Positions 3,237 to 33,108 of a stretch of 35,086 nt of DNA are shown here, in pieces. Positions within the stretch are counted from its first letter, which is position 1. The number at the start of each line of letters is the position of its first letter. The notes under the pieces were generated by a model that was not told the origin of the DNA, made no database searches, and was given only the letters and a program-made list of their open reading frames with translations. Origin of the DNA: Chrysochromulina tobinii (taxonomy: Eukaryota); contig JWZX01003160.1 of the NCBI GenBank assembly GCA_001275005.1, positions 1 through 35,086 on the forward strand, read 5' to 3'. A program made the translations under genes and the position numbers.

Positions 3237-6156
3237 TCAGGCGGTCTCCTCCGTCGAGGGTGGCGGCCAGCCGTATGGATCAGTGGTGAGCCAGGGGTGC
3301 TGGAGCGCCTGCTCGGCCGTCGGGCGCTCCTCGGGGTCAATCCTGAGAAGCGAGCCCACAAACGAGAGGAAGAGCTTATCGTCCGTGTGGCAGCGGTGCT
3401 TGAGGGAGGTCTGCTTGGGGCGCAGCAGGAAGGGCTGCTCGTCGCGGTCGCGCTCGTACACCATGCCGTCCACAAAGTACTTGTGCGAGTGCCGCCCCTT
3501 GGCAAGGAAAGCCTCGGGGAAGGGGCCGACGATGGCCGAGATACGGGCGAGCATCGATGCGACGGAATCGTTCTGGAAGAGCACGTAGCCGGTGAGCAGC
3601 TCAGCTAGGATCGCGCCGAGCGACCAGATGTCGATCTTGCCGTCGTACTGCAGTCCGAGGATCACCTCGGGCGCGCGGTAGCTGCGGCTCTGTACATAGC
3701 TGGACAGGTGGTCAGTCAGGTAGCACGACGAGCCGAAGTCGATCACCTTGACCTCGCATCGCGAATAGCTCTTGATGAGAATGTTCTCCGGCTTGAGGTC
3801 GCAGTGGATGAGGTTGAGCTTGTGCACAAAGTCGAGCGCCTCCAGGCACTGCTTGGCGATCCGTCGCAGCCGAGGCAGCGTGAAGTAGGGCTCGCCGCCC
3901 TGCTCGCGGTTGTATTTCGAGAACTCGTAGAGGTTGTCGCGCAGCAGCTCGCACACGATGAAGAGATGCTCCTTGTGGTAAAAGAAGTCGTAGATGTGAA
4001 CTACATGGTGAGAGTCGTCCGGGTCGTGTTGCTTGAGGTAGTCGAGCAGCATCACCTCATCGAGCGACTGGTCGAAGAAGTCCTTGTTGTTCTTGATGAT
4101 CTTGACGCACACCATCTCCCCCGTGTGGAGATCGAGGCACTGCACCGCCTTCGAGAAGGCGGCGGAGCCGAGGAATTCCTTGACCTGGTAGCGCGCCGCA
4201 ATGAGCGAGTGCAGGCGGATCTGGAAGTCCTTGTGCTCTTCGAATCCGGTGCGCCCACGCTCATGCACCACCTTGAGCGACATGGTCGCCAGCTTCGCTG
4301 CCTCGCGCGTGGCCTTCTCGTATGGGTCGACCTCCGGGTCCGACTCGCCGATGACCTCCTCCTCTTCGCCGCCCTCCTCCTCATCGGCGCCCTCCTCCTC
4401 CTCGCCCTCGGCGGGCGGCCCAAGGATGTCGGACGCAAGCACGCCGCGCCCGCCCACGTGCCTCGCGTCCTCAAGGGCGTCCTCGTCCTCGTCCTCATAA
4501 AACTCAGCTTCCTCATCCTCCTCTCCCTCATTCTCCTCGCCATCCTCCTCATCGTCGTCGATGTCGTCGAGGTCGTCCTCGTCCGGCGCCTGCTCCTGCG
4601 CCATCTTCCGGTGCTTGGGCGGTGCCGAGGCTGCCTCCTGCGACAAGATCGACGGCGAGTCGAGGCTGGACAGCGCACCGAGCGCGAGCGGCTTCTCGGC
4701 CTTCGACCCGCCCGCGGAGACCGTGCGAATCGCACTCTCGAGGGATGCTTCCACAGCGCTCTCCATTGCCTTCACCTGCTCGGCGAGGGCCGCGAGGCGA
4801 GCCTTAGCGTCGAGCACACCCTTCTCTTTGGCCTCCTCCGCGCTCGTGGCATCCGCCCCCCCGTTGCCTGGCGCTGTGGTGAGCACATCCGCGGTCGGCG
4901 CTGTGGTGGGCACGCCCTCAGCCGTGGGCTTGGCGGCGCCCTGGACGAGGGCGGTGATGTGGGCGAGCACGGCGGCGGGGTCGGGCAGCGTCGAGGGAGA
5001 TGGGCCGTGCTTGGACGCTGGCGTCATCCCCGACATCGCCCCGCCCTCTACCACCAGCTTGAAGGGCGTCGTGCTGGGCGACGACGTGGCCACACTCACG
5101 CTCGGTGCACCACTCGTCGTCGGCGGCGGGGTGGCGGCCTCGCCAGGGGCCGATGAGGCGGACACAGCCGATGCACTTGGCGTCGTGCTGGGCGCCATGC
5201 TGGGCGTCGTGCTGGGGCTCGGCCGCGGCGCGGAGGCTCACCATCACTTCGGCAGCGTCGCCATGGGGCCTTGTCGCTTGACCCGCCGTGACCACGGCCT
5301 CCATCTGCATCACCTGCTCATGCAGCGCACGCAGCCGCGCCTTGGTGGCTTCCGCATCGGACGGGGTGGACGGGGTGGCCGCGGGGGTGGCCGCCGCCGG
5401 CTCCGCGGCCTTGGACGGCGCGCATCCCGTCTTCACGCCCGCACCATTGCTTGAGCACAGCACGCGAGGGTCGGGCGCAGTCGCAGCAGCGCCGCTCGCG
5501 CTGGCCAAGGCGGTGGCGGCGCCTGCCTGCTCCACCTCGTCGTCATCGTCGCCGTCGACGTCATCGCCCGCCTCGTCGTCGGCCATCTCGCCACGGTCGG
5601 CTGCCGTCGGATACTCATACATCTCAAAGATTGGGTCGCGGGGGTTGCGGCCAGCGCTCAGCTCCTCGGCGGCAAAGGAATCCCTCGAAGTAATCGAAGC
5701 GGCGAAGCCGCGCATGAGCGCCTCCTCGCTGCATTCGATCTGCAAGTAGCCGAGCGCCTCATCATCGGTCCACGCGTCTACATCGCCGTCCGCGTCCGGG
5801 TCGTGCCAGCGTATCGTCACCGGCGCCGCGGCCGGTGCTGGGGCAGAGGGCTTTGCGGCGGCGGCGGCGTGCGTGTCCGGGCTCTGCGGCATGTCCTCGT
5901 CCGCGACGATCGCCTTCAGGACGGGCGGACGCATCTCCTGAAGGATGCTTCCGGTCGACTTCGCAGGGCCCGCCGTGGCGCCGCGAATGAGCATTGCCTC
6001 GAGCTGCGAGAAGCCTTGCTCCGTCACGGGCAGAGGTGTCCGCTCGAGCTCGAGCTGCTCCCGCAGAGCGGCCTCTGCGTTGACAAAGCCCTTTGCAGCG
6101 AGGAATTCGAGCACCAGCTCTATGGGCTCGACGCTCTCGGTCATCTTTTGCGCCAT
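3237..6156 (-). CDS. DYRK-family kinase of the plant-like DYRKP type, in two frames joined by an intron or frameshift near 4941-5241
   Basis: Kinase motifs LGSAAFSKA, VCVKIIK, HCDLKPEN, DFG and SSYVQSRSYRAPE; DH-box-like RTGFEEHKDF; N-terminal LisH-like VLEFLAAKGFVNAEAALREQL in ORF 4918..6171. ATG at 6156. Confidence 0.85.
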
Positions 6157-6580: not shown

Positions 6581-8065
6581 CTACTCCTTCTTCTTCTTCT
6601 TCTTCGGTGCCTCGTCGGAGTCCGAGTCCGAGTCCGCATCCTTCTTCTTCTTCGTCGCGCTGTCCCCGCCGGCCGATGCCGCTTCCTTGGCCGCCTTCTT
6701 AGCGGCCTTGGCGGCCTTCTTGGCCGCCTTCTCCTCCTTGCTCAGCTTCTTTTCGCCCTCCTCGGCTGCGCCATTAGTCGGTGTCGTCGATGACGCGACG
6801 GGCCGGCTGCTGCTCGCACCGGGCGCGGCCGCGCCGCTGCTGCTGCCACCGGGCGTCGTGCCGGGCGTCATGCCGCCGCCGCTGAGCCACTCGGCGGGAG
6901 TGAGTGCGTTGGGCTTGCCGTGCTTGTCGAGCTTGCCCTCGGCGATGAGCGCCTTCTTCTGCGTCGCCTTCGGGCCGAGGCCCCACCGGCGCGGGTACGT
7001 GTCACGGTCCATGACGACACGTTTGATCTTGGCGACAGCGCCGTGGTCGCAGTGCGCCATGTCGGCCGTTGCCATGAGGGCGATGCCGACCGCGACGGCT
7101 TCGCCCTTGGTGGTCATGAGCACCACCTCCTCGTTCACCTCGATGCCCGCCGCGAAGCGAAGCAGGCCGGGCAGCATCAGCTTGGCACCGTAGCACACAG
7201 CGTTGACGGCCGAGTCCTTGAGGACGATCCGCTTGTAGTTGGTGAGCAGGATCTCAAGCGGTTTGATGACGTGGCGCAAGTAGGTCTCGTCCTTCGTCTG
7301 GTCGTACATGTACTGCGCGTCCATCACGTCGTGCATCGTCATCAGGTGCTCATTCTCCGACAGGATACCCGAACGTGAGCGGCGGAGCTCCTGCATGTGG
7401 CCACCGGTCCCAAGCACTAGCCCGAGGTGCACGCAGAGTGTGCGGATGTAGGTGCCCGCCTCGCAGTCGACGCGGAAGACGGTGAGGTTGCGCTCCTTGT
7501 CGAACTCGGTCAACTTGTTATCGTAGATCGTGCGCACGCGCAGCTGCCGCTTCACAGCCGAGATGAGCGGCGGACGCTGGAACAGCGCGCCCGTCAGCTG
7601 CTCGAGTGCCTGCAGCATTTTGCGCTCGCTCTCGACGGCAGCGTGCGTGCGCAGCACCGCAATGTACTGCTTGCCCGCACCCTGCTGCGACTTGACGAGC
7701 CGCGTCGCTCGGTTGATACAGACGATCAGGCAGCCAGTCACCTTCGGGTCAAGCGTGCCCGAGTGCCCTGTCTTCTCGACGCGCAGAATGCGCCGGATCC
7801 ACGCGACGACCTCGTGCGACGAGGGGTTGGCCGGCTTGTCGAGGTTGATCACGCCGTACTTGAGGTACTCCTCGAGTGGCCGCTTGAGCGGCGTAAACCC
7901 CGAGGGGATGGGCGTGTAGTGGCCCGTGCGCACGTGCAATTGGTCATAGTTCTTGAGGAGCAGCGGCCACTTGGAAGTGTCAAGCGGCGGCGTGGTCGCC
8001 TCCGGCTTGATCAGGAAGTCGTGCGCCGACTGGTCTGAGGAGGAGGACGCCTTTTTGCCAGACAT
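6581..8065 (-). CDS. DKC1: H/ACA RNP pseudouridine synthase dyskerin/Cbf5
   Basis: [31 protein letters not shown], catalytic [15 protein letters not shown] domain, [11 protein letters not shown] and a Lys-rich tail. No intron needed. Confidence 0.98.
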
Positions 8066-8305
8066 TTTCTGCTCAGGTTAGGTCAGCAGCACTCCGATGC
8101 GTACAGTAGGCCTCGTCGCAAGAGCGATTTCTGTTTCTTCACACTTGCGTCGCGCTGTGAAACGACCCGCGAACCGGGAGCTTAGCGGCAATCCGTTACG
8201 AAGACGCCAGGTTAGCCACACCACACGATTCACACGCAGGCCCCAGCTTGGCCTCCCTTGTGACGTGCAGGGATAGCTTAGGTGCCGCGGAGTAGGCGCG
8301 GGGCG
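8066..8305. promoter_or_regulatory. Putative bidirectional promoter between DKC1 and Nup155
   Basis: 240-bp gap between two divergently oriented ATGs (8065 on minus, 8306 on plus); inferred from gene layout only. Confidence 0.55.
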
Positions 8306-11300
8306 ATGTCGCGCGGCATCCTGTCCAAGGCGGAGAAGGAGAAGCTCGCGGATTCGCGCAAGCAGGTGGCCAAAGTGCTCGAGCGCGATGCCAACCTCTC
8401 CGATCGGGACCTCTACGATCGGCTTCTCAAGCAGGCACGCATGCCGGAGCAGGACATGTACGAGGAAAAGCTCGCGGACAACGCACTCATCCACCAGCGG
8501 CCGGCTTTCAGCGAGGTGCCGGGCGGCTACACGCCGATGCCGGCCGCGCTCCAGCAGGCGGCCCAGGGTGAGTACTACCACAGCTTCCAGGGCCTCTTCC
8601 CGCAGATCCACCGCGCTTGGATGACCATTGACCACGTGCTCTACCTGTGGGACTACAACGACCCACGGGGCTCGTTCTACCTGTATGATGGGCTCGACCA
8701 GACGATCATCCACGCGTCCCTCGTCCGCCCGCGCCAGGGCGTTTTCGAACCCACGCCGGACTGGCTCTTGCTGCTCTCCACGCCGGTTGAGGTCATCCTC
8801 CTCGGGCTGTACACGACCGCCACCCACGACATCAACGTTTTCGAGACGGGCTACTCGGTGGCCACCGACGGCGCGAACCTGCTCCAGATCGTGGGGACGC
8901 CGAGCGGTCGCATCTTCATGGCCGGCGCCGACGGCTTTGTGTACGAGCTCACTTACGGCGATAGCGAGGGCTGGTTCTACACCAACAAGAAGTGCACCAA
9001 GCGCAACCGCTCACGCAAGCGAGACGTGGCGCTGCAATACCTCAGTTCAGTGGTGTACGACTCCTCGGACCCCATCCTCGATCTGGTGTACGATGCTGAG
9101 CGCTCGCTGCTGTACACGCTCTCGCGTGCGTCGACGCTGCAGCTCTTCGACCTTGGCTGGGACGGCGAGGGCCCTGTGCGGTTCGTCGCGCGTCTCGAGG
9201 CCCAGAAGCTCGCTGCCGACCTCCGATCCCAGAGCAAAGTGCGCGACGCGCCCATCTACGCGAAGGTGGATAAGGACATCAAGGAGGGCGAGCAGAACAA
9301 AGAAGGGCAGACCGCCTTCGTGGCGCTCGCGCCGCTCCCGTCGGCGCTCTCCAAGCAACTTCAGCTCGTGATCACGACCGTCTCCGGGGTAAGAGTCTAC
9401 CTGGAAGTCGTCGACGCGAATGGGAAAGGCCTGGAGAGCGCGCCCGACAGCCCGCGCGCCGCGAGAGTGAAAGTGCTCTACGCGCTGCCGCCGCCTCGGC
9501 CTCTCAAGTGCCAGCGCGGCACGGTGCCCAACGCAGCGGACGTGAATGTCTTCGCGGACGAGCTTGCGCGCTCCGGTCTCGAGCCATCCCACAGAGAATG
9601 GGAGTTGCTCTGCCTCTCGGATCTGCCGCTGCTCCCCTCCGACCGGCCAGAGGGCAGAGATGACAAGTCGACCCTCAGCCGGCTGCGCGTCCCAGGAGTT
9701 GTCTTGGCCCTCGCCGAGGACGTCCACGGCGCCGTGACGAGCGCCGCGGGCAGCTACGAGCTCGTCAGTCAGCATCGGGTCGATCCGGCGCGCGCTCGTA
9801 CCTTCATCGTTCTCACGACGAGTGTAGCGGGTGTGAAGCGCATCGTCAAGCGACGACCAGTGGATGAGCTCCAATTGCTCCTCGGGGCGTCTAGTGCCTC
9901 TTGGGTCGACCAGCCATTGGACTTTTTTCGTCGGTACGGCCCTGACGAAGCATGCGCCGTGTGCCTGCGTGCATGCAAGTGCTCACCACGACGCCCCATG
10001 CACTTCCCCACAGATACGGCCCCGACGAAGCATGCGCCATGTGCCTGCTCAGTGCCATCAGCCAGCCTGCCCTCAGCCAGCCAGCCCTCCAGGCGCAGCT
10101 CGCGGAGTGGGCTCGCCGCTGGGGGGAAGGCGCATCATCGGCGATGGCCGCGGGCCAAGGTGGCGCACCGAACGTCGCGCAGACCGCAGCGGCGCACGGG
10201 CAGGCAGTGCCGCTCGCGGAGAAGCGGTACAGCGGGAGACACGGCGGGCTATGCCGGGTGCTCGCGAGGCTGCTTCAGCCCTATTGGGATCGGCCGTTGA
10301 TCCTCAAAGTGCCGGAGCCCTCGAACGCTACCGGTGAAGATTTGCGCCTGTGCGAGCCTCGCGAAAGATGGAACGAGCTCCAGGGCAAATTGCTCTGCCT
10401 CATCAACCATATCGAGACGCACGGAGAAGCTTGGGGACGCTTGGGTGCTGCCGGGTACGCGGGTACGAATCCGCGCGCGTCCCTTGGCGGCGGTGGCGCC
10501 GTCGGGATGCACCAGCTTGGGCAGGGGCTCTTGGCCGACCCGAATGTCCCGCAAGCGCTCAGACATGCATTTCCGCCAGCGCTCAGACTTGGCGCCGTCG
10601 TTTCTCAGGACGAGGCGGATTTGAAGAAGCAGGAGGCTGCCGCGATCGACGCCCTTTTCTACTTTGCGAAGCGTGCGGCGGAGGCGGCCACCTTCCTCGC
10701 GACGATCGCGGCCGATTCGCGCGCGCCCGGCGGCGGCGGTGGTGCCACCGTGCCCGAGCCGGCGCGTCTGCAACTGCTCGACAAACTCGCGAAGCCTCTC
10801 GACGCGCCGCAGCGTGAGGCACTGCTTAAGATGACCCTCTCTGATCTGCTCGTGCCGCTCCAACGGGATGCAAACGGCCGGCCGCAGCCGGACAAGTGGG
10901 ACGCGCGCGTGGAGACCGAGCTGCCCAAGAAGCTCTTCATGGAGCTCGGTAAGGTCGAGGGTGTCCCAGTGGCGTCCCAACTGCAGCGCCACTGCCACAC
11001 CTTCTTCTCGGACGCGCACAAGGAGGAGCAGACTGGTTTGGATGACTTGAAGAAAGCGGAGGAGAAGCCTGAACAGCGGACCGAGAACGTCAAGAAGGCG
11101 CTCGACGCCTTCGGCCGGGTGGCGGCGCACATCGACCTGCCGCAGGTCCTCGACGCGCTGCTCAAGTCCCGTGCCAAGTTCGCCACAGATGGGGCCAGGG
11201 CGGCCGCGGTACTCGAGCTGCTCAACCAAGGGATCGCATCACTACCCCTCGCCGCCGCCAGGTCGGACGATCCTACGGGCGACGCCACAAGCCTGCTAGT

Positions 11301-13080
11301 ACCCGTGGCAGGCGGCGGCGCCATGACCGGCGATCCGATGGCGATCATCAAGGGCTGGCCTGACAAGAAAAAGGAGTGTCTGGTGAGGCGCTTGAGTCGC
11401 TACCACCTGCTGTTCAAGAAGGTGGAGGAGCTCGAGAAGCCGCCGAAGCCGTCGAGCGCGCCGACCCCGCACGACAACGAACGCGGTGGGCTCGACGGGT
11501 TCCGGGTGCTCTCCCTTGCTATGCGACAGCAACCGGTAGATGAGCTCTTCCACTACGCCGCCTATTATTGGCTCCTGTACGGACAGCGGGCCGACATGTT
11601 GCTTCTGCTGGCTCAGGAGAAGAGCTCTCCGTACCTCGAGCGTTTCGTCTTCGATATGCAGCGTTTCAAAGTGAGGACTACGACAGAGCCCGATCTTCGT
11701 CAAGAGCACCGCGAGCTCCTGCACGCCCTTGTTCGCGCGCACGAGGTGTGGAGCCGCTTCGTCTTCGTCTCATCGCAGGAATCCTTCGCCACACTCGACA
11801 AGCTCATGGAGAGCTCGCCCGATGACTCGAAGTGGCAACATGTGGAAGAGGAGCTCGACTCGGGCGAGCTGCTGCCGAGGTTGTATGCCCGCCAGGAGAG
11901 ACTTCTCGAAGCAGCGATGGCCTTCGCAGAGCTCGCCGAGCGGCCCGACTCGGCTGCACCCCAGCCGCCCGCGCCAACCGCGCCCGGGCTCGCTCCCGCG
12001 CCAACGAACCCACCGCCAGCCCCGAGCGCTAACCAGCTGGAGCAGCGCCGTCGGCACGTCGAGAAGCGCGTTTTTTATATGAATCGGGCGCTGTCCTATG
12101 CGCCGAAGGGCGGGTTGGGCGCGGACGAGCGCCGCTCGCTAGAGGACAATCTGCAGCGCGGGAAGCTGCAGATTGACGTGGCGAAGTGGCTTGAAGCACT
12201 CCTGCTGAGCCACGCGGACGTGGAGCTCGAAAGATTGCGGCCGCACACATTGGACGACCGCACTGGAGCTCCACGGGACAAGGAGGAGCTGCGTCAGGCG
12301 ATTGTTCACTTCCACGCGCAGGTGTGCGGCCGGCTGCTCGACATCATCGCGCTCTTCAAGGGCGCGTGGGCAGCTCGCCTCTGGCGGCCGTCGCTGGCAA
12401 TCCTTGACTTTTCGCGCCCGTACCGCGAGTACCCGCAGTTGATTACGAGTGCTCTGCAGGAAATACTCGGCCAGCCGCCGAGTGTCTGGGCGCTGCCCGC
12501 CGTCGACGCCCGCGCCGCCTTTCGCGAGCGCGACGAGCTGCTGCGCGAGGTGGTGGAGCTTCGAAAGCACTTTCCGAATGAATATGCCTTCCAGGCCGAC
12601 GCGGTGATTGCGTGCCTCGAGGCTCACGAGCTAGCCCGCCCAGACCAGGCGAAGCCAGGCGAAGTTGTGAAGATGTTCTGCGCGGGCCGCGCGGGCGTGC
12701 AGCCGCCCGTGTGGCCGCAAGTGCCATGGCCCGTTCTGTACCAGTGCTATGGCTCGCCGGAGCGGTGCGGACCTCTCATGCAGAAGCTCTGGGCGGGGAG
12801 CCGGCGCAACCTCGGCCAAGGAGTGAGGCAGAGTGACGCAGAGGCTCGAGTGACGCAGAGACTCCACCTCATCGGTGGGTTAGTGGAGCTGTTGAGCCGT
12901 TGGAGGGAAGCCGCGCGCGTGGAGTTCATGGCCGCGCAGCGCCAGCTGGGGATCGCCTCCGACTTGGAACGGCTGATGACCGAGCTGGACGGCATCCTCT
13001 CGGCGAACTCGGGAACGTTCCCGAGCGCTCAGGACCTGAGACGTCGAGTCACCGAGCTCCACCATTCCCTCGGCCGCTAG
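8306..13080 (+). CDS. NUP155: Nucleoporin Nup155/Nup170 family; exons 8306-9933 and 10014-13080
   Basis: GLFPQIHRAWMTIDHVLYLWDY, GRIFMAGADGFVYELTY, RYGPDEACAMCL, YSGRHGGLCRVLARLLQPYW and DELFHYAAYYWL match Nup155/170. An 80-nt GT..CAG intron restores the frame (CG|A). Confidence 0.92.
9934..10013 (+). other. Spliceosomal intron (80 nt) made of an exon duplication plus a cassette
   Basis: gtacgg...ccccacag; removal joins ORFs 8282..10300 and 9952..13080 in frame. Confidence 0.88.
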
Positions 13081-13121
13081 TGACACACGCTTGGGACACA
13101 CGCTTGTGACACACGGCCATT

Positions 13122-13212
13122 CTGGACGGCGCGCCGGAGGGGACGAGAGGGGCAGCAGGCATGTGCTCGCCACTATGCTCTCTCCCCACTGGACGGCGCG
13201 CCGGATGGGACG
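13122..13212 (+). repeat. 24-bp direct repeat around a degenerate GCATG-TGCTC-CCAC cassette, just 3' of Nup155
   Basis: ctggacggcgcgccgga(g/t)gggacg at 13122-13145 and 13189-13212; filler includes gcatgtgctcgccactatgctctctcccca. Confidence 0.8.
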
Positions 13213-13242
13213 GCGCGCTAAAGCGGCCGGCGCGGCGCGAAA

Positions 13243-13290
13243 GTGCTGAATTCGGCTCTGTGCTGAATTTGGGACTGTGCTGAATTTGGA
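13243..13290. repeat. Three 17-bp-period repeats of gtgctgaatt
   Basis: gtgctgaatt at 13243, 13260 and 13277. Confidence 0.8.
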
Positions 13291-14338
13291 AATGTAAGTG
13301 CCGCAGAGGCGCATGCGGGAGACGAGGACGGTGGCGGCGGCGACGCTGATGCGGCCATAGTATTGAGGGTATTGGAGGTGGCGCGCCGTTGTGAGCGCGG
13401 AGCCCACGAGGGAGCTGGGGCACGTGCGATGACGACGCTACTCTCGAGAGCGGCTCAGCTCACAGCTGGACGCTGCGGGTCGGGTGGCGAGCGTGACTTT
13501 GTGGCAGAGCTACTTTGGAGGACGCCGCGGCGGCTCCTGTGCGGTCGAGCGCAGATCGGGACGGACACGATATCCCAGCGGCAGCGGCTGCGGGGCGGAG
13601 AACAGAATCCAGGTGTGTGCGTTCGGCCATTCTTGGTTCATGTCGTTGCGGTTCATCTTGTGTGTTTTGTGTGTCATTGCACATTGCGGTGCGCGAGCAA
13701 GCGCGCCGGTCCGTCGGTCCGGTTGTTCCGTTATCGGTGGTGTCGGTGCTTAGTCGGTGCCGCCACATACGTATGGTTTACCATTATGGTATTGAAAGGA
13801 AGGAAAGGAAAGTGGAAAGGCTGAGACACATCCGCGGTGCACGTTCTCAGATAAATTATCATTTGAGATTTCGTACCATGAATTTGAGGACACACACATC
13901 CACACAGACACACCGCATCACCGGGGCCACGGCCAGCACGGTCCACCGCAGATAGGTGTTCGCAGCGGCGCCACCTAAGTTTAGGGGCGAGTCGTGAGTC
14001 GACGTGTCCACCAGGATATAACTCGAGTAACGCGAGTATGATGTATGTTACTTTCCGGCGTTGTGTGAGATGTGAGCGGGTGGCTGGTGTGGCGCGTGGA
14101 AAATTTGCAAGGTCCTGTCCTCATGTGAATTGCGGAGGTTCTCGTTTTCCAGTGGAATTCGATGCCTTGATTCGATGAAGCGAGTTCCGTCATTGAGCGT
14201 TTGTGTTTCACAGCCAATGTTTATAATTCGACACCCAAGACACCGGACCTGCGTACCAGTACATACCGGTACGTGTGCGGTTACATCGTTTCACTATCGT
14301 TTCACAGCAGCAAGCCGGAGTGTGGTCTAGAAAAAAAG

Positions 14339-15765: not shown

Positions 15766-17982
15766 ATGCGCAGGAGCAGCTCACCCGTCATGAAATGCGA
15801 GGTGGATGCGGCGCGTCGGGAGACGATTGGCACTCCGCGCCGCCACCGCTCGCGCATCGGTGTCGACGCGGGCACACCGCCGACTCCTGTTCCGATGGCA
15901 TTGCCCTTGCCGCCTGCAGAGCCGTCCACGCCGGCAAATGAAGGCGTTGCGTGCACGCCTCACCGGCCGCCGGGAGAGCCCACCAGCGCCAATCGACCAC
16001 CTCCCCCGCACGCACGGCCCCAAAGGCACTCCTCGCGCACGGCCGCGGCAACGGCGGAGGCCACGGCGCGCGCCTCACGCATCTGCGTCGGACTCATGCG
16101 CATCATCCAGCAGGGGACAGAGCTGCAGCGATGGGTGGACAGCGCCGAGGGTGTCCAGTGCCCGCTCGATCAGCTGGAGAGAATCGTGAGTGCGCTACAG
16201 CTCGCCGAGGACGCGCTCTCGCGCCTGCGCGCATGCATCGAAGGCGCTTCCCAGCGGGAGAATGTGTGCGCCGCACTCCTGCGACAGGCAGACAAGACGA
16301 ACGCTCTAAACGAGGCGTACGAGCTGGGCAGCAGGCGCACCCCCGCGCTGACCATGCTGCTGCACAACCTCCTCACGTCCATCTCGGCCACCGCCTGCGC
16401 GTGCGTCAAGCAGCTCAGGCCGGCGCCCTCGCCGGCGTGCTTGGTGCAGCTGGACGACGGGACGGAGGAGGCGCTTCGGCAAGCAGAGCTCGAGCTGAGC
16501 CGTGCGTGCGGCACCGACGGGTGCCTGCCCGAGCCAGCGGAGGGCGCGGCGCCCTCCGACGGTCCCCTGCGCCCCTGGTCGGCGGCGAGCTCGGCGGCGG
16601 ACGCGTCGGTGGATGCGTCGGCGGCGTCGTCCTCGGGGTCTTCGTCCTCGACGGCGGCCTCGGCCTCTGTGACATGGCAGTCGACCTCTCGAAGCTCCAA
16701 GTGGCAGACTACGACAATCGAGACCCTCGAGTGGGAGGCGTGCGTGGCAAGCTGCACGCCGCAGCAGCAGTGCGACTCGCCGGTGCCTCGCTCGCCGCGT
16801 CCGCCCTCATCAAGCGCGTACCGCGCGCGTGCAGAGGCCGCTGCCCTAGCTGCCCGCGTACCCCTGCGGCGCGTGATGCATCAGCAGCATCGTGACTCGC
16901 CGCCGCCCTACGGGCTGGGCGCCGAGAACCACGAGCCCGCCTCCGCGAGTGGAAGTGCTCCGAACAGCGCCTCGGCCGGGCGGCCCTTTTCGAGCCCGCT
17001 CCCCTTGGCGGACTTGGGCGCTCGTCTGGGCGCGGGCGTGCTTGAGCGCCTGGCGGCGGTTGCGCCGCCGCCGCCGCCGCCGCCCACGGACGCGCTCGGC
17101 GCGTCGCAGCCGCCGCCAGGCGACACCTCCACGGCGCGCCCACCCAGCTCTTGTAGCCGACGATGCGCTTCCTATGCCCCACAGCCGCCGCCTGCCGAGG
17201 CCGATCCGCTCGGGGCGGCGCGCCACGGCACGCCACGCACGCGACCCGAAACGCCAGCCGGCGACGGCTGGCGTGTGCCCGTGCGCCCCGAGACGCCAGC
17301 CGGCGACGGCTGGCGTGTGCCCGTGCGACCCGAGACGCCGGCGGCCGGCACGACTTGCGCTGCGCCCTTGGCGGTGCCGCGGCCCATTGCGGCTATCGCC
17401 GGTCCTGATGGCATTCGACCGGCCTCAGCCTACGAGCGGAGGCCCTCGTTCGGCAATCTGGAGCCGCTGCGCGATCCGCCAGCGTGCCCCCCTCTCGAGC
17501 TCTGCTTCGCCTCCCTGGCCGACCGGCCCGATCTCGAGGAGGACTCGCTGAGCGATCGAAGCTTCGAAGCTGCCTTTGGCGACAAGGGTGGCGGCCTTGG
17601 CGGGCTGGGCGGCGGCCCTGGAAGCTTCGGCCGCCCCCGTCGTCTCGAATTCCTCTCGCGCCCGGGCTCAGCGGCGTCGCTGCGGGGGGCACCGCCACCG
17701 CTCCTCTCGCCCAGCTCCGCGTCCTCAGCCGCCTCGTCCTCGCCTACCTCGCTCACTCCGAGCACGTCGCTCACGCCTCTCTCGAACACCTACAGCCCCT
17801 CGCCGCTCGCCGCCTCGATCGATGCGGCCATGCGGGCAGCCAACTCGGCGCGCAGCTCGGCGGTCAGTGACGCCTCCAGGCCAAGCAGTGAATCGCCGGT
17901 GGCGTTGCCGCACAGGCCGCACTCGCCGCCTCCGCTGAGCCGCTGGCCGACCTCTCTGGCGGCCGCCGAGGGCGATTCTTGA
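15766..17982 (+). CDS. Hypothetical Pro/Ser/Ala-rich protein with a helical N-terminal region
   Basis: 738-codon ORF with GC-rich third positions; no recognised domain; contains a 14-aa tandem repeat. Confidence 0.6.
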   Translation: MRRSSSPVMKCEVDAARRETIGTPRRHRSRIGVDAGTPPTPVPMALPLPPAEPSTPANEGVACTPHRPPGEPTSANRPPPPHARPQRHSSRTAAATAEATARASRICVGLMRIIQQGTELQRWVDSAEGVQCPLDQLERIVSALQLAEDALSRLRACIEGASQRENVCAALLRQADKTNALNEAYELGSRRTPALTMLLHNLLTSISATACACVKQLRPAPSPACLVQLDDGTEEALRQAELELSRACGTDGCLPEPAEGAAPSDGPLRPWSAASSAADASVDASAASSSGSSSSTAASASVTWQSTSRSSKWQTTTIETLEWEACVASCTPQQQCDSPVPRSPRPPSSSAYRARAEAAALAARVPLRRVMHQQHRDSPPPYGLGAENHEPASASGSAPNSASAGRPFSSPLPLADLGARLGAGVLERLAAVAPPPPPPPTDALGASQPPPGDTSTARPPSSCSRRCASYAPQPPPAEADPLGAARHGTPRTRPETPAGDGWRVPVRPETPAGDGWRVPVRPETPAAGTTCAAPLAVPRPIAAIAGPDGIRPASAYERRPSFGNLEPLRDPPACPPLELCFASLADRPDLEEDSLSDRSFEAAFGDKGGGLGGLGGGPGSFGRPRRLEFLSRPGSAASLRGAPPPLLSPSSASSAASSSPTSLTPSTSLTPLSNTYSPSPLAASIDAAMRAANSARSSAVSDASRPSSESPVALPHRPHSPPPLSRWPTSLAAAEGDS
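17242..17343 (+). repeat. 42-bp coding tandem repeat (RPETPAGDGWRVPV x2.4)
   Basis: Visible in both DNA and translation. Confidence 0.9.
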
Positions 17983-18055
17983 TGATGGAGGCAATCAGAC
18001 TGATGAGGGAGGCAATCAGCATGCCCAGAGCAGCCGAGGGCGATTCTTGATGATG
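17965..18055. repeat. 23-bp direct repeat spanning the stop codon, flanking a gaggcaatcag-containing filler
   Basis: gccgagggcgattcttgatgatg at 17965-17987 and 18033-18055, with a 45-nt filler. Confidence 0.88.
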
Positions 18056-19148: not shown

Positions 19149-19229
19149 ACTCATCTCCCCTACTTCCAACTTCCAACTTCTTCACAGGCTCATCTCCCCT
19201 ACTTCCAACTTCCAACTTCTTCACAGGCT
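19149..19229. repeat. Tandem duplication (39-bp period) upstream of COA5
   Basis: ctcatctcccctacttccaacttccaacttcttcacagg occurs twice in tandem. Confidence 0.9.
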
Positions 19230-23529: not shown

Positions 23530-24781
23530 ATGTGAGTTTGCCAATATGTCGCGGTCCTCGCTGCTCTCGTCGCTGCCGGCCTGTACGCCGGCCATCACTC
23601 ACGGCTGGCAATCGACTCTCGCTCTCTCGCTCTCTCGCTCTCTCTTTCTCTCTCTCTCTCTGGCAGGCGACGATCGCCAGAACCCCTACCCAAGTACGAT
23701 GTGTTGCCTTGGTCGGAACCCGCAGATTTTTGCTACCAACCGTCGTGGCCCAGGCGCGCCCCCGGTCCGCCCCCGATCATCAATCCCGTGCAGCATTCTG
23801 GCAAGAGCGAGATGATGGGTTCGTCCCTTCAGTCCAACGCAATCAACTCGCGCAAGGCTGGGCCGACCAGCATTGGCGGCGGACTGAAGAAGATGATGTC
23901 GGAGGGTGCGACGCGCGGTCAGAGCGAGGCAAAGCTCCTGTGCGAGTACGCCTCGAAGAAGTGCCAGAGTGAGCTCTCTCTGCTGTTGAAGTCGGGCGCC
24001 GACCCGAATGTTCTATGCAAGGTGGACTGGCAGCCGTTCGAGACGACGCCTCTGCTGGAGGCCTCCGTTGCCGGGTACAAGCGTTTGGTGCGTCTGCTGC
24101 TCGAGCATGGCGCCAAGCCGAACACTGTGGTGGGCCCGGGCTTTACGGCCATCTACAACGCTTGCATGGTGAGCTCGCACCCACCCCTCTTCCTCCACCC
24201 ACCCCGCTCCCTCCACCCACGCACCCCTCACCTTCTGCCCACCCGTCGCTATGCAGAATGGGCACTATGAGGTGGTGGCCCTCCTTCTCGAGCACGGGGC
24301 GACCGTGACGCAGCTGACGGACGAAGGCTTCTCGCCCCTCTACATCTCCGCCCAGAATGGCCATATGGACTGCGTGGTTCTTTGCCTTGGGGCAACGAGC
24401 ATGACCAAGGAGCTCGCCGATCTCGGACCGAAGGAGCTTGGGGGCGCCACAGCGCTGTACATCGCGGTGCAGAATGGGCATCCCGACTGCGTGCACCAGC
24501 TCATCAAGGCGGGTTGCGCCATTGACCCCGTCACCGAAGCGGGTTCGACGCCGTTGATGATTGCCCTGTACCTTTCAGACATTTACGCCGACAAGCCACA
24601 CATCGACTGCGCGCGGATGCTCCTCGAGGCGGGCGCCTCACTCGAGCTGAAGGACAAGTCCGGCCGGGACGCGCTCGGCTGGTGCGGCCACGACTACTCT
24701 CTGATTGACCTTGTGGTCGAGGAGCAGAAGCTGCGCGATCGCCAAAAGAAATCTGGAGAGTTTGGCCGCGGCTTCTGGTGA
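23530..24781 (+). CDS. Ankyrin-repeat protein; intron 24169-24256 and probable intron 23532-23666 (alternative start at ATG 23812)
   Basis: TTPLLEAS, GFTAIYNACM|NGHYEVV, GFSPLYISAQNGH, ATALYIAVQNGH, STPLMIA. The 88-nt gtgagc..atgcag intron joins two ORFs in frame. Confidence 0.85.
23613..23661. repeat. (CT)n-rich microsatellite acting as a probable polypyrimidine tract
   Basis: ctctcgctctctcgctctctcgctctctctttctctctctctctct immediately before ggcag. Confidence 0.8.
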
Positions 24782-25318: not shown

Positions 25319-26002
25319 ATGCATCGCTTACGTAGCAAGCTCGTCACCATGCTGCTCGTGGCGCGGTGCACGGCAAGGGACTGCACCCTATCTGGTGTGG
25401 TGGAGGGCGGGTCGGCTTGGAGCTTCAATCTCGCAGGGTGCAGCTTCGTCGATCTCTCTGCGAGCAACCTGCCCGAGGACGGTCTGCTAGCGCTGGCCGA
25501 GGTGCTAAACACCAACACGGAGCTCACTTCGCTCAGCCTCCGCCACAATTCGATGAGTGACAACGGTGTGAGGGCGCTGGCTGATGCACTCAAGATCAAC
25601 ACCGCTCTCACCGTACTGCTGCTGGGCTTCAACTCGATTGGCAACGAGGGCGCAAGGGCGCTCGCCGGAGCGCTCGAGGTGAACAGCGCGCTCACCCTGC
25701 TGGACCTCGACTCCAACGCAATAGGCGCCGAGGGTGCGAGTGCGCTCGCTGAGGCGCTCAAGGCGAACAGTGCGCTCGTCGTGCTGACCCTCGGCTCCAA
25801 CCCGCTTGATGGTGAATCCCGGCGTGCTGTCGAAACGGTGCTCGCGGTGCGTCCAGAGGAGCGAATGCAGAGGTATGCCGGAGGAGGCGCCAGAGGTATG
25901 GCTTCGCTCCATGAGGAGGTACGGCGTCGCTCCATGCTGGACGACGATGCAACCGGAGCCGACGTCGCCGGTGCAAACGCCAACGCGCGACTTGAGCTGT
26001 AA
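25319..26002 (+). CDS. Ribonuclease-inhibitor/NLRC3-like leucine-rich repeat protein
   Basis: 28-aa repeats LTSLSLRHNSMSDNGVRALADALKINTA, LTVLLLGFNSIGNEGARALAGALEVNSA, LTLLDLDSNAIGAEGASALAEALKANSA. Confidence 0.88.
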   Translation: MHRLRSKLVTMLLVARCTARDCTLSGVVEGGSAWSFNLAGCSFVDLSASNLPEDGLLALAEVLNTNTELTSLSLRHNSMSDNGVRALADALKINTALTVLLLGFNSIGNEGARALAGALEVNSALTLLDLDSNAIGAEGASALAEALKANSALVVLTLGSNPLDGESRRAVETVLAVRPEERMQRYAGGGARGMASLHEEVRRRSMLDDDATGADVAGANANARLEL

Positions 26003-27808: not shown

Positions 27809-30800
27809 CTAGTCGCGCGCCTCTTTGCACACCGGGCCAAAGCCGCGGCCGCTCGCGTCAGTCACCTTGGTGAAGCCCATCGAGATGCATCCGCTCTCCT
27901 CCGCCGCGCGCGCGAGGCACGGGTCAGCCTCGGCAAGCGCCGGGTGGCCCGTCTTGAGGTGCAGCCAGCCGTTGGAGTCGGGCGACGAGCAGCACTTGCA
28001 CGTCATCTTATCGTGGAAGTTGGAGCGAGAGTCGAACTGCGGCTCAAAGAGGGAGCTGAGCTCACCCGCGGAGAAGCGGTTGGCGGCTCCCTCGCCGTCG
28101 ACAATCTCGCCCGCGAGACCATTCTTCGAGAACTGACGACCCAAGCACACCTCTTCGAGGCTGCCCACCTTCAAACAGGGTGGGTTGCAGAGGGAGGGGG
28201 GCGCCATGGTGAGCACTTGCATGCAAGGCAGAGTGGGTTGCAAAGGGAGAGGGGCGCCATGGTGAGCACTTGCATGCAAGTACATGCAAGGAGACGGTTA
28301 CGGCAGCATCGAAGAGGTTCAGGAGAGAGCGAACGTACAGCAAAGAGCCGGTACACGTAACACGGCTTCTGCTGCCCGCTGCGCCACACGCGCGCGAGCG
28401 CCTGGGCGTCGATGGCCGGATTCCAGTCCGGGTCGAAGAGGATGAGTCGGTTGGCGCCGATCAGGTTGATGCCACAGCCGCCGGCCTTCGAGGAGAGTAG
28501 GAAGGCGAAGATGGACGGATCGGTGTTGAACGCGTCGACCCGCTCCTGCCGCTTGTTGGCGGCGAGCGAGCCGTCGAGCCGCATGAAGCGCAGCCGCTCC
28601 TTGCTCAGGACTGCGTCGAAGAGGTCCAGGATCGAGGTCGAGTTGGAGATCAGCACGAAGCGGTCGTCCGTGGTGCGTTTCACCTCGCGCAGCAGAGCGC
28701 GCATCGCCCTCAGCTTGCCAGAGGCGGCAACCGCCGCGTCCACATCGATGGCACCTTGCCGCGCCTCGAGCGCCTCGAGCACGCGCTTGCCGCTTACGCC
28801 GCCGCCTACGCCTCCGCCCGCGCCACCAGTCACCGCCGCCGCTTCAGTCGCTCTTGCTTCGGCCGCGGCGAGGCTCTTGGCTGCGAGAGGGTCGTTGACA
28901 ATCTTCTTGAGCATCGCGACAGTGCGCAGCGCCGTCTTGTTCTGCTGCGCCTTCTCGCCGGTCTTGGCGGCACGTTGCCAGGCTGCGCGGCCGACGGTGA
29001 CCTCGTGCGTGTAGGCAGCCTGCTGCTCGCCCGTGAGGGAGCAGAAGACAAGTACGTCGAGCTTGGCGGGAAGGTACTTGGCGATCACCTCGTTCGAGCG
29101 ACGGAGCATGAGCTGGTTGACGATGGCAATGAAGGCGCTCGATGCGGCGCTCCCGCGCTCAATCTCGGCGTCGCTCGCCTCAAGGTCGCGCGCCTTCTCG
29201 ATCGCCTTGCCATATTTGGCCTGGAACTCCTTCTCCGAGCCGAGCCCGTCCGGGATGCAAAAGTGGAGCAGTGCAAAGAACTCCTCGAGACCATTCTGGA
29301 TGGGTGTACCGGTGACCATCAAGCGCATCTGTGTGGGCAGTCCGAACAACGCTTGAAAGAGGGCCGTCTTGAGATTCTTGAGTTTGTGCGCCTCGTCGCA
29401 CACGAGCAGACCAAGCGGGATCGTGCGCAGCGTCTCGACGTGCAGCCGCGCCGTGTCGTACGAGAGGATGAGCAAACGCGCCGTGCGCAACGCTCGGAAG
29501 CTCATGAGCTTCGCCTCGATGTCATCCTTCATGTCGCTCGTCAGAACTGTGAGGTTGAGCTTTCGGGGCAAGCCCTCAGTCCACTTGGCCACCTCGTCGC
29601 GCCAGTTGTGCACAAGGCTCGTCGGGCAGATGACCGCCGCCGTCGTGATCAGCCCCTTGCTTTTGCCCGGCTCCATGCACGAGTACAGCAGCGTGTGGAT
29701 CGTCGCGATCGTCTGAAGCGTCTTGCCGAGTCCCATATCATCGGCTAGGAGGCACCCCTTACCGATGGCCTTGCGCCCGAGGCACGCCTGCACGATGAAC
29801 TGACAGCCGGCGCTCTGATGCGGGCGCAGCTTGGCGGCGAGCAACGGGTCCATCATGAGCGCGCACTGGCCTTCCTGCCACGGCTCGCAGAGTACAAGCC
29901 GTACCCCCGCGGCTGCCGCTGCGCCATCTGCGCTACTGCCGCCGCCGCCGCTTCCCATTCCGCGCTTCTTCCGCAGAAGGCCGCCGCCGCCGCTACCGAA
30001 GCCGCTCGTGAGGCTCACCATCGTGCCCATCCACATGCTGCCTCCGCCTCCGCCTCCGCCTCTGCCGCGCTCACCCTCGTCGGTCGCCTCCTCGTCGTCG
30101 TCGTCGTCCGCGTCCTCGCCGTCGGCGCGCTCGCGCTTTACCTTTGAGCGCGGCGGGGGGGGTGGCATCGCCCGCGCGATTACCGTGCCCGCGACAGCTT
30201 TGGGCGCGCCGAACTTGCGCTTCTTGAAGGGCATCGCCGGCCTCGCAACCGGAGGCACGTCGCCCTCGGCAGGCAGGTCCTCATCGGCCGTCTCTTCCGC
30301 CCCGCTGACGAGCAACGTGCCTCCCTGCGCTGCCTCGCTGAGGAACGTGCTGACGAAACGAGCCTGGGAAGAAGACGGTGCCGCCGCGCTCATGCCAAGG
30401 CCGCCGTGGCCGCTCGTGAACATGAAGCCGTGAAGTGGCTTGCGGCTGCCGAACAGGCCGCCGATCGGGGTCGAGCGCATCTGCTCTGTTGCATGCGCCC
30501 CGATGAGATCGCAATCTCCATCAACACGTTCCTCGCCGTCGAGCGCCTCCACCTCCTCTTTAGCTTCCTTCGCAGCCGTCGCCGCTGCTGACGCCGCTGA
30601 GGTCTGCGCGGGCTTCCGCGCGAGCTGCTGCTCCACCTGCTGCTCGTGCTGCTCCTCCGCCGGTTCCTCCTCCTTGACAGTGGGCATCGGCAGCAACGTC
30701 GGGCGAGCCGCAGCCGCCGTCGGGCGCGAGCTTCCGTCCTTGCGTGGCGGTGCAAATGACTTGCGCTTGCGCGCGCCGGGCTGCTTGGTGGAGTCGGCTT

Positions 30801-31738: not shown

Positions 31739-33108
31739 TTACTCCCTCAAACTGAGGGGAAGAAGCGAGTCTAAAACAGTTGAGGGTAAGAGGCTCATCA
31801 ATCCTCCAACCACGTTGAGCCCAACAGATGCTACAGTTGAGGTTGAAGGTGAAGGTAAGAGACTCGTCAGCCCTCCAACCAAGTTGAGCCCGACAGATGC
31901 TACAGTTGAGGTTGAAGGTGAAGGTAAGAGACTCGTCAGCCCTCCAACCACGTTGAGCCCGACAGATGCTACAGTTGAGGTAGAGGGAATCGACTGCCAC
32001 AAGGTCGTCGCGTCTTGCGAGTTGTGCAATTCAAGCCACAAACACGGGAGGCGATCACGCATGGAGAGCATCACTCCCAATGCTGGTGCGATTCCGTGTC
32101 CGGAGCTGGGATCGCACTCGACATAGGGAATATGGATGTCCCCATCGCTGTCGCTGCGTGAACTGAGGGTCGTGCTCATGGACGCTGCAAAATCGCGAGC
32201 CTTTTCATACGACACCTCTCGCTCTTGTCGCCTGGGTTGGTTCGATGAGCAGACATCGGAGGCCAACGAGCCACTAGCGAGCGATATGTACTTGGATCAC
32301 GGTATTCCCAATAGGAAGGGTCAACCAATCGTTCGAAAGTTGTGGCCTGGTGAATATTGAAGCACACACAAACGCAATCGGCATCGCGGATGAGACGGTC
32401 ATATGCCTCACGTTCAGTCGCTGGCAAGTCCCAAATCAGCATCTTGTAGACCTTGCCAAGGTAGCGCGCAAAGCACACGCCACATTCGACATCCCCACGC
32501 CACATCGCGTCTCTCGGATAAAACTCACTTGGTCTGTGGCACGACAACTTGAGGAAGGTCGACCCGCAGAAGGAAGGGCCCAGCAGAACAACTTTGCAAA
32601 GGTGATCACAGAAGTTATCACAGTCTTGGTCAAAGGTACTACTGTCAAAGGGCACCGATATACGTTGAGCAAAGACAAAGTGCCGATATGCCGCACGCCA
32701 GCCGGAAGGCGGTGAGACCATGGGAACATGCGCCACGCCCCGTGTGAGTGAATCGCGCAAATAGAGAGAACGCCAGAGATTCTCGCGAGTAGCCACGCGC
32801 GACCACGTCATGCACGTTGCCGCCGCACACAAAACCTCAGGCAAGTGCAGCGCCGACATGCATAACTGGAGCAAGTCCTCATCGAAGAGTACGCGCTTCG
32901 CTATCGTCGTACTGTCCAATTGCGACTCAGCGGTGAGCCTTCCGGGTGTCTGGGCCTCCCCTTTGCAGTCCACCTCCGCCGATGCCCCCACCGCCGATGC
33001 CCCCATAGCTTGCCGTCCTCGCGAGTCAGGATGCAGAGGCCACTCGGTGCCGTCGGGCAGCGAGATGAAGACTAAATTCTCTGGCGTGGAGGGCGAACGC
33101 GAGTCCAT
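31739..33108 (-). CDS. F-box + degenerate Rab-like GTPase protein, frameshifted near 32300 (possible pseudogene)
   Basis: F-box-like FDEDLLQLCMSALHLPEVLCAAATCMTWSRVATRENLWRSLY; Rab-like DHLCKVVLLGPSFCGST, KMLIWD, IRDADCVCVCFNIHQATTFERL; second frame EREVSYEKARDFA..IPYVEC..SGHGI. Confidence 0.7.
31782..31988. repeat. 69-bp tandem repeat x3
   Basis: gaaggtaagagactcgtcagccctccaaccacgttgagcccgacagatgctacagttgaggttgaaggt; encodes PSTSTVASVGLNVVGGLTSLLPS on the minus strand. Confidence 0.92.

Follow-up and report, generated by a model that had tools for sequence, protein, structure and literature searches.

An intron of the Chrysochromulina tobinii Nup155 gene apparently built from a duplicated exon segment and a recurrent splice-acceptor cassette

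Results

The Nup155 intron and its parts

The window analysed here, a whole stretch of 35,086 nt of Chrysochromulina tobinii DNA with a GC content of about 63%, contains a Nup155 gene with two coding exons separated by a short intron (Table 1). A GC content of 63.4% is listed for C. tobinii, and the nearest named dyskerins belong to haptophytes, at 79%. Removal of the 80-nt GT..AG segment at 9934-10013 restores the reading frame (FFRRYGPDEACAMCLL), with Pfam Nucleoporin_N upstream and Nucleoporin_C downstream, so that the coding sequence is intact, as the initial annotation had assumed. The junction predicted there is also seen in RNA, where precisely 80 nt are missing from a contig of 2323 nt (X13 record 10); this support consists of one contig from one run, and a contig from a second RNA run, X14, ends at 9951, short of the junction. 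Its GT-AG ends and its removal from RNA agree with an intron of the U2 type.

The start of the intron (9934-9968) and the start of exon 2 (10014-10048) are identical at 32/35 positions in the window, as originally described. This value becomes 33/35 with DNA runs X1 and X9, which read G where the window has A at 10014, making the acceptor junction AG|GT. Since window and runs differ at about 11 positions in 11.5 kb, the A is a strain allele, silent for the protein, or an error. Both intron junctions are present in the two DNA runs, although on separate contigs (8000-9997; 9970-10715/10722), with no single contig across the whole intron, and no contig of either run skips it. An assembly artefact, raised at the outset as a possible refutation, is therefore unlikely.

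The cassette accounts for 45 of the 80 nt, the AG included; the target site reads CG|GT, with the AG imported with the cassette. The fold of the whole intron is unremarkable (z -0.11), and a 7-bp hairpin in the cassette copy (z -2.6) lies internally and has no counterpart in the nearest tails among the matches listed, those of loci L094 and L060. At 10013, 11 contigs of run X9 depart from the match, and the consensus of their next letters is GT.

Table 1. Coordinates of the Nup155 gene, its intron and further cassette- or repeat-related features in the window
Feature	Position	Strand	Basis
Nup155 coding exon 1	8306..9933	+	ORF; PF08801, E 3e-46; RNA contig X13 record 10
GT-AG intron of Nup155, 80 nt	9934..10013	+	80-nt skip in RNA contig; frame restored on removal
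Intronic copy of first 35 nt of exon 2, source of GT donor	9934..9968	+	32/35 in window, 33/35 in runs X1/X9
Cassette core, 25 nt	9970..9994	+	exact 19-mer at at least 135 loci; conservation stops 6 nt past the 19-mer
CTCAC in cassette core	9982-9986	+	putative branch A at 9985, from sequence
Pyrimidine-rich cassette tail ending in CAG acceptor	9995..10013	+	X9 contig exits at 10013; similar tails elsewhere
Exonic (retained) copy of the duplication	10014..10048	+	encodes YGPDEACAMCL, same in P0001
Nup155 coding exon 2	10014..13080	+	ORF; PF03177
24-nt duplication around degenerate cassette, Nup155 3′ UTR	13122..13212	+	unskipped in RNA
23-nt direct repeat (17965-17987, 18033-18055) enclosing fragments of the second cassette	17965..18055	.	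DNA depth high at 17980-18020
Candidate GT-AG intron, 170 nt, SNF2/RAD54-type gene	28169..28338	-	two cores in 53-nt tandem; no exon duplication

Related proteins bear on the history of the site. One of them (P0001, 89% identical, 1590 aa, on an 11.7-kb contig) runs uninterrupted through it, and this single protein hints at an intron-less Nup155 in a relative. Another, P0138, begins just after the intron site and exemplifies how gene callers break at such introns. At the position where V would be encoded by the intronic copy, three related proteins that continue across the junction have M, so the exonic copy is the ancestral one.

The cassette family

A metagenome scan for the exact 19-mer of the core returned at least 135 loci, the stretches containing it being estimated at about 1700 across many assemblies. 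The summed DNA depth of the cassette bin reaches about 25 times the background, a value that is not a copy number. The core sequence was the basis on which every copy was found. The 173 matches listed fall into 157 distinct contexts, including three core matches in bacterial genome contigs that were taken as chance and excluded; of the remaining 154 contexts, 140 had full flanks and 101 were non-tandem, and removal of five second sightings left 96 single copies for the sorting of builds. In viral contigs the core pattern had no matches and no Nup155 relative was found. Since locus L105 is 99% identical to the window, and the runs holding the window also hold locus L015, at least part of the sampled loci come from this alga.

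The portable cassette without terminal inverted repeats (TIRs) postulated in the initial annotation, supplying a branch-like CTCAC, a pyrimidine tract and CAG, thus recurs as a pattern at many loci, with the branch assignment remaining a prediction. Nevertheless, no single fixed element is involved; the cassette varies and appears to represent part of an existing intron. Among the matches listed, the copies showed no TIRs and no poly(A) run (0/224) and revealed no longer parent element, the longest common head being 57 nt with a low score; sequence shared far beyond an intron-sized unit was found only between orthologues. Rfam gave nothing at the gathering score on loci L015, L009 and L042, and four sub-threshold matches there to miRNAs were rejected.

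Within the window, the core allowing up to three mismatches has four matches, while 0.03 are expected. Two of the further ones, on the minus strand at 28207-28277, lie in the SNF2/RAD54-type gene, in a candidate intron called by read-through translation. The insertion in the Nup155 3′ UTR is crossed without a gap by RNA contigs of X13 (12144-13797) and X14 (12427-13801). At 4870-4890, on the minus strand, a core fragment lies in frame in the low-complexity region of a kinase ORF (VLTTAP), and in-frame fragments occur likewise at loci such as L042 and L028, which suggests exonised pieces of the cassette. Loci L037, L048, L035, L135 and L136 contain head-to-tail arrays, which probably arose by unequal recombination and in which a duplicate and its cassette, together a complete candidate intron, form the repeated unit.

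Two intron builds

The initial annotation had also proposed a search for the cassette with the duplication measured at each match. Among the matches listed, a flanking direct repeat scoring at least 14 accompanies 74/101 copies, compared with 6/2000 mismatched pairs and 14/215 shifted sites. Sorting of the 96 single copies gave 48 of type A, 18 of type B and 30 others, with 6/178 controls passing; a few of the automatic calls look wrong (L033, L047, L081, L098). Type A is the Nup155 build. Its duplicate opens with a GT or GC, and a pyrimidine tail followed by AG closes the cassette. That the duplicated exon provides the donor, as first suggested, is borne out by the RNA skip at Nup155 and by the recurrence of this build in half of the copies. 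Type B extends the original description by a mirror arrangement, in which the cassette begins with its own donor and halts a few bases past the core, while the duplicate ends in AG; these are candidate introns, their splicing being read from sequence. The 30 others include introns with short duplications and genuine non-splicing insertions, such as 13122-13212 in the window; the orientation of non-splicing copies is mixed, as judged by weak scoring.

Duplications measure 10-46 nt in type A (median 27, n=48) and 11-35 nt in type B (median 20.5, n=18) among the matches listed. In the same sample, the codon frame matches on the two sides of the intron in 54/66 copies of both types, with about one third expected, and the distance from donor to branch-like A in the 48 type A copies is 38-64 nt and never less than 38. 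The spacer between duplicate and cassette varies from 0 to 32 nt at the 5′ side and is at most 10 nt in 36/48 listed cases, and many 3′ ends in listed type B and non-splicing copies lie some 9 nt beyond the branch-like A. The duplication lengths of type A show no clear enrichment of multiples of three (19/48 of those listed), as expected if insertion and duplication were one step. A match at the junction before GT was found in 49/64 vs 47/169 cases, which selection of donors explains equally well.

Several introns of this kind can accumulate in one gene. The DEAH helicase gene of locus L015 contains four cassette introns within 900 nt of the helicase core, interrupting conserved motifs, e.g. 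GETGSG|KTTQ; the gene is identified by its motifs, Pfam giving one weak DEAD match (E 0.065) on the four exon pieces. RNA skips two of the four (71 nt in X13 and X14; 77 nt in X13 record 4), and the first two are absent from the listed RNA joints. In the freshwater run X19 no orthologue of L015 was found, an outcome that carries no weight as evidence. At four type B loci with GC donors (L034, L052, L135, L121), the exon ends in the same 9-12 nt and the tails are nearly identical, which hints at a transfer guided by homology.

The initial annotation regarded the Nup155 intron as recent, and for the family this holds in part. Intronic and exonic copies of the listed duplications differ at 55/1213 positions and 17/48 duplications are perfect, yet loci L040 and L056, about 85% identical, have one cassette intron in common, so some cassette introns are older. 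Locus pairs L078/L132 and L047/L101 differ by units of 82 and 42 nt at cassette sites, showing that these are still changing.

Putative source introns and likeness of neighbours

The insert at locus L100 is a whole L059-type intron, spanning exactly GT to AG of the source and including the 16 nt that L059 had duplicated from its own exon, and the tail at L039 holds 16 nt of the L013 exon. Each of these passenger 16-mers occurs only in its own pair among 437,747 bases; both pairs lie on different contigs and were chosen by eye, the automated list being mostly tandem or family matches. Furthermore, copies on the same contig are more alike than others, the observed values of three head/tail measures being reached by 16, 21 and 22 of 3000 permutations; a fourth measure, tail alignment, was not significant (362/3000). 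This test comprised 110 collapsed copies on 53 contigs, from one id group. Heads share at least 8 nt in 10/195 same-contig pairs vs 18/15,513 other pairs, with 8 of the 10 coming from one contig, and two neighbour pairs on opposite strands have 16 flanking nt in common. On the basis of the passengers in two copies and the likeness of neighbours, the template appears to have been existing introns and not one master element, although the local likeness is modest and gene conversion between neighbours could also be its source. Microhomology at the 5′ junction, testable in 11/40 cases (1.7 vs 0.6 nt), is suggestive only, as the cases are non-independent, with one reciprocal pair and one putative source that is its own daughter.

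A second cassette and plain duplications

A second acceptor cassette, unrelated to the first, has a forward duplication in 20/50 cases vs 8/600 random AG sites; the true count is lower, as the 20 include several tandem or overlapping cases. As two unrelated cassettes have the same build, the build is independent of one element. Plain tandem duplications of 15-80 nt number 33 in 253,838 bases, counted without a comparison genome, and P0001 contains in-frame tandem duplications of 27 aa and 23 aa with no cassette; together these suggest a duplication-prone background. Near-perfect plain duplications also lie in the window at 19150-19229 (39 nt), 25893-25936 (23 nt) and 31781-31981 (69 nt).

Discussion

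Relation to known intron sources

Recent surveys credit transposons for intron gain (PMC9860276, PMC12130899). Introners with one splice site of their own and the other co-opted from the target site duplication (TSD) are described in Polarella (classes 4/5, 6/8/10) and Symbiodinium (bioRxiv 10.1101/2020.10.14.339549), and family 5 of Chrysochromulina sp. TARA carries the 5′ site, with a 4-bp TSD and no TIR (Gozashti 2022, PMC9860276). Like these, the introns studied here recur with similar sequence at unrelated loci in large number, carry one splice site while taking the other from the duplicated exon, and leave the length of the mRNA unchanged. The sources give Introners TSDs of 3-8 nt, fixed per class, and defined element ends (10.1101/2020.10.14.339549; Gozashti 2022, 10.1101/2022.06.06.494994 / PMC9860276; PMC11282704), and the methods of PMC9860276 require similarity starting and ending near both intron boundaries. 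Here, in contrast, up to half of the intron is host-derived, duplications of 10-46 nt at one end are locus-specific with medians that differ between types A and B, ends are variable, and copies contain exon sequence of other introns. The Nup155 intron acts like an Introner and, by the criteria tested, lies outside that class. Within haptophytes, family fam24 of Emiliania huxleyi (about 70 nt, "10bp terminal direct repeats", mechanism given as unknown) likewise co-opts the 5′ site and carries the 3′ site, a likeness by description only, and its five copies are far fewer than the cassette loci found here; the same survey gives 0 introner families for Chrysochromulina tobinii (Gozashti 2025, PMC12130899).

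At Nup155, the exon-derived repeat is present at a length of 35 nt. Neointrons of Daphnia also have a direct repeat of the adjacent exon at the far end of the new intron, and their inserts are reportedly not a repeated family of splice signals. Their origin is ascribed to the repair of staggered double-strand breaks, with repeats of only 4-12 bp in 33 cases (PMC4202315). In the Rogers model, as given in PMC3443670, tandem genomic duplication of AGGT yields both splice sites; a duplicated exon precisely provides a splice site here too, but the AG at Nup155 is imported and the intron as a whole does not stem from the duplicate. The expectation that the intron would not fit either the Introner or the tandem-duplication model cleanly has held. 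Intron transposition with template switching by reverse transcriptase would likewise produce new introns resembling existing ones, although it moves whole introns, with no long duplication (PMC3443670). Alternative end joining (alt-EJ/SD-MMEJ) and patch-mediated repair in rice generate duplications with nearby or ectopic inserts and switches at 2-5 bp of microhomology, and the available text does not present them as a self-propagating source of introns (PMC7407515). We found no description of a long variable exon duplication combined with a cassette in the literature, of which supplements and subscription journals were partly covered, nor in the accessible text of PMC3296678, PMC8469720 and PMC13746701.

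Mechanisms of intron formation

With regard to the mechanism, we give about even weight to a single step, in which host repair inserts templated sequence where a staggered break or a template switch occurs, followed by selection for splicing. At a staggered break or stalled synthesis, repair would copy part of an existing intron, often a nearby one, into the gap, and synthesis would resume upstream, about 35 nt at Nup155, leaving the exon duplicate beside the cassette. Junctions would form at microhomologies of 1-4 nt, and the copying could be performed by host machinery such as polymerase-theta-like end joining or template switching. Selection would then retain those exon insertions that splice out cleanly, favouring targets that start with GT or end with AG and a donor-to-branch-site distance of no less than 38 nt. 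The new introns could serve as templates in turn, and the family would spread without a transposase of its own. We lean towards DNA as the template, though the exact GT-to-AG insert at L100 and the 3′ ends about 9 nt past the branch-like A would also fit intron RNA. The broader proposal, held a little more tentatively, is that host break repair pastes donor- or acceptor-side halves of introns into sites duplicated over 10-46 nt, without a transposon, that chimeric introns beget introns, that several unrelated cassette lineages spread alike, and that standard Introner scans fail to see much of what this lineage has in introns.

The main rival, which we consider rather unlikely, is that intron RNA, after excision or trimming, serves in trans as the substrate of an endonuclease and reverse transcriptase of a non-LTR element (L1/RTE/Penelope-type), the long duplication resulting from staggered nicks. 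Variable TSDs and 5′ truncation are hallmarks of non-LTR elements, and both the long variable duplications and the variable 5′ spacer are seen here. The exact CAG end in type A and GT start in type B, the whole-intron copy at L100, and the 3′ ends near the branch-like A in type B and non-splicing copies agree with it as well. However, the poly(A) tail and the full-length or longer parent that such elements possess are missing among the matches listed, and likeness between neighbours would be unexpected for a process in trans.

The other readings fit worse than either repair or reverse transcription. A classical non-autonomous DNA transposon (Introner/MITE), its TSD giving one splice site, would account for the high copy number, and builds carrying the 3′ and co-opting the 5′ site, or the reverse, are described for Introners in the sources cited above; it is improbable in view of duplications well beyond the short fixed TSDs described there, the lack of TIRs and fixed ends, the exon sequence of other introns within copies and the like behaviour of an unrelated cassette. 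Just as doubtful are two separate steps, namely a plain tandem duplication, common here and in P0001, and a repeat later landing between the copies and rescuing them as an intron: the 35-nt duplication would frameshift Nup155 until its rescue, multiples of three are not clearly enriched, and the cassette adjoins both copies, mostly with a short spacer. Finally, old introns whose 5′ half was later overwritten by the neighbouring exon, a reading that the intron common to L040/L056 and the duplication-free SNF2 intron would favour, are very improbable given the perfect duplications, the four cassette introns crowded at the L015 helicase core and the apparently uninterrupted P0001.

Should templated repair be the source, it would address the long-standing question of the origin of new spliceosomal introns. 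A source intron and its daughter can be matched through exon sequence carried along, which makes the copied tract, its ends and the distance to the source measurable genome-wide, and such measurements would separate DNA-templated repair from reverse transcription in a culturable alga. Introns of this kind would probably be overlooked by scans that require similarity from end to end. Given the long repeats at their flanks, recombination would also be expected to remove them precisely and to multiply them in tandem.

Other repeats and introns in the window

A second very high-copy short repeat lies at 14207-14250, upstream of a short-chain dehydrogenase ORF, with a depth far over background and many loose contig ends. 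A pyrimidine-rich segment at 24178-24244 is a probable intron of an ankyrin gene, without the cassette core. The first 99 nt of the window consist of a short tandem array with units of 11/23 nt.
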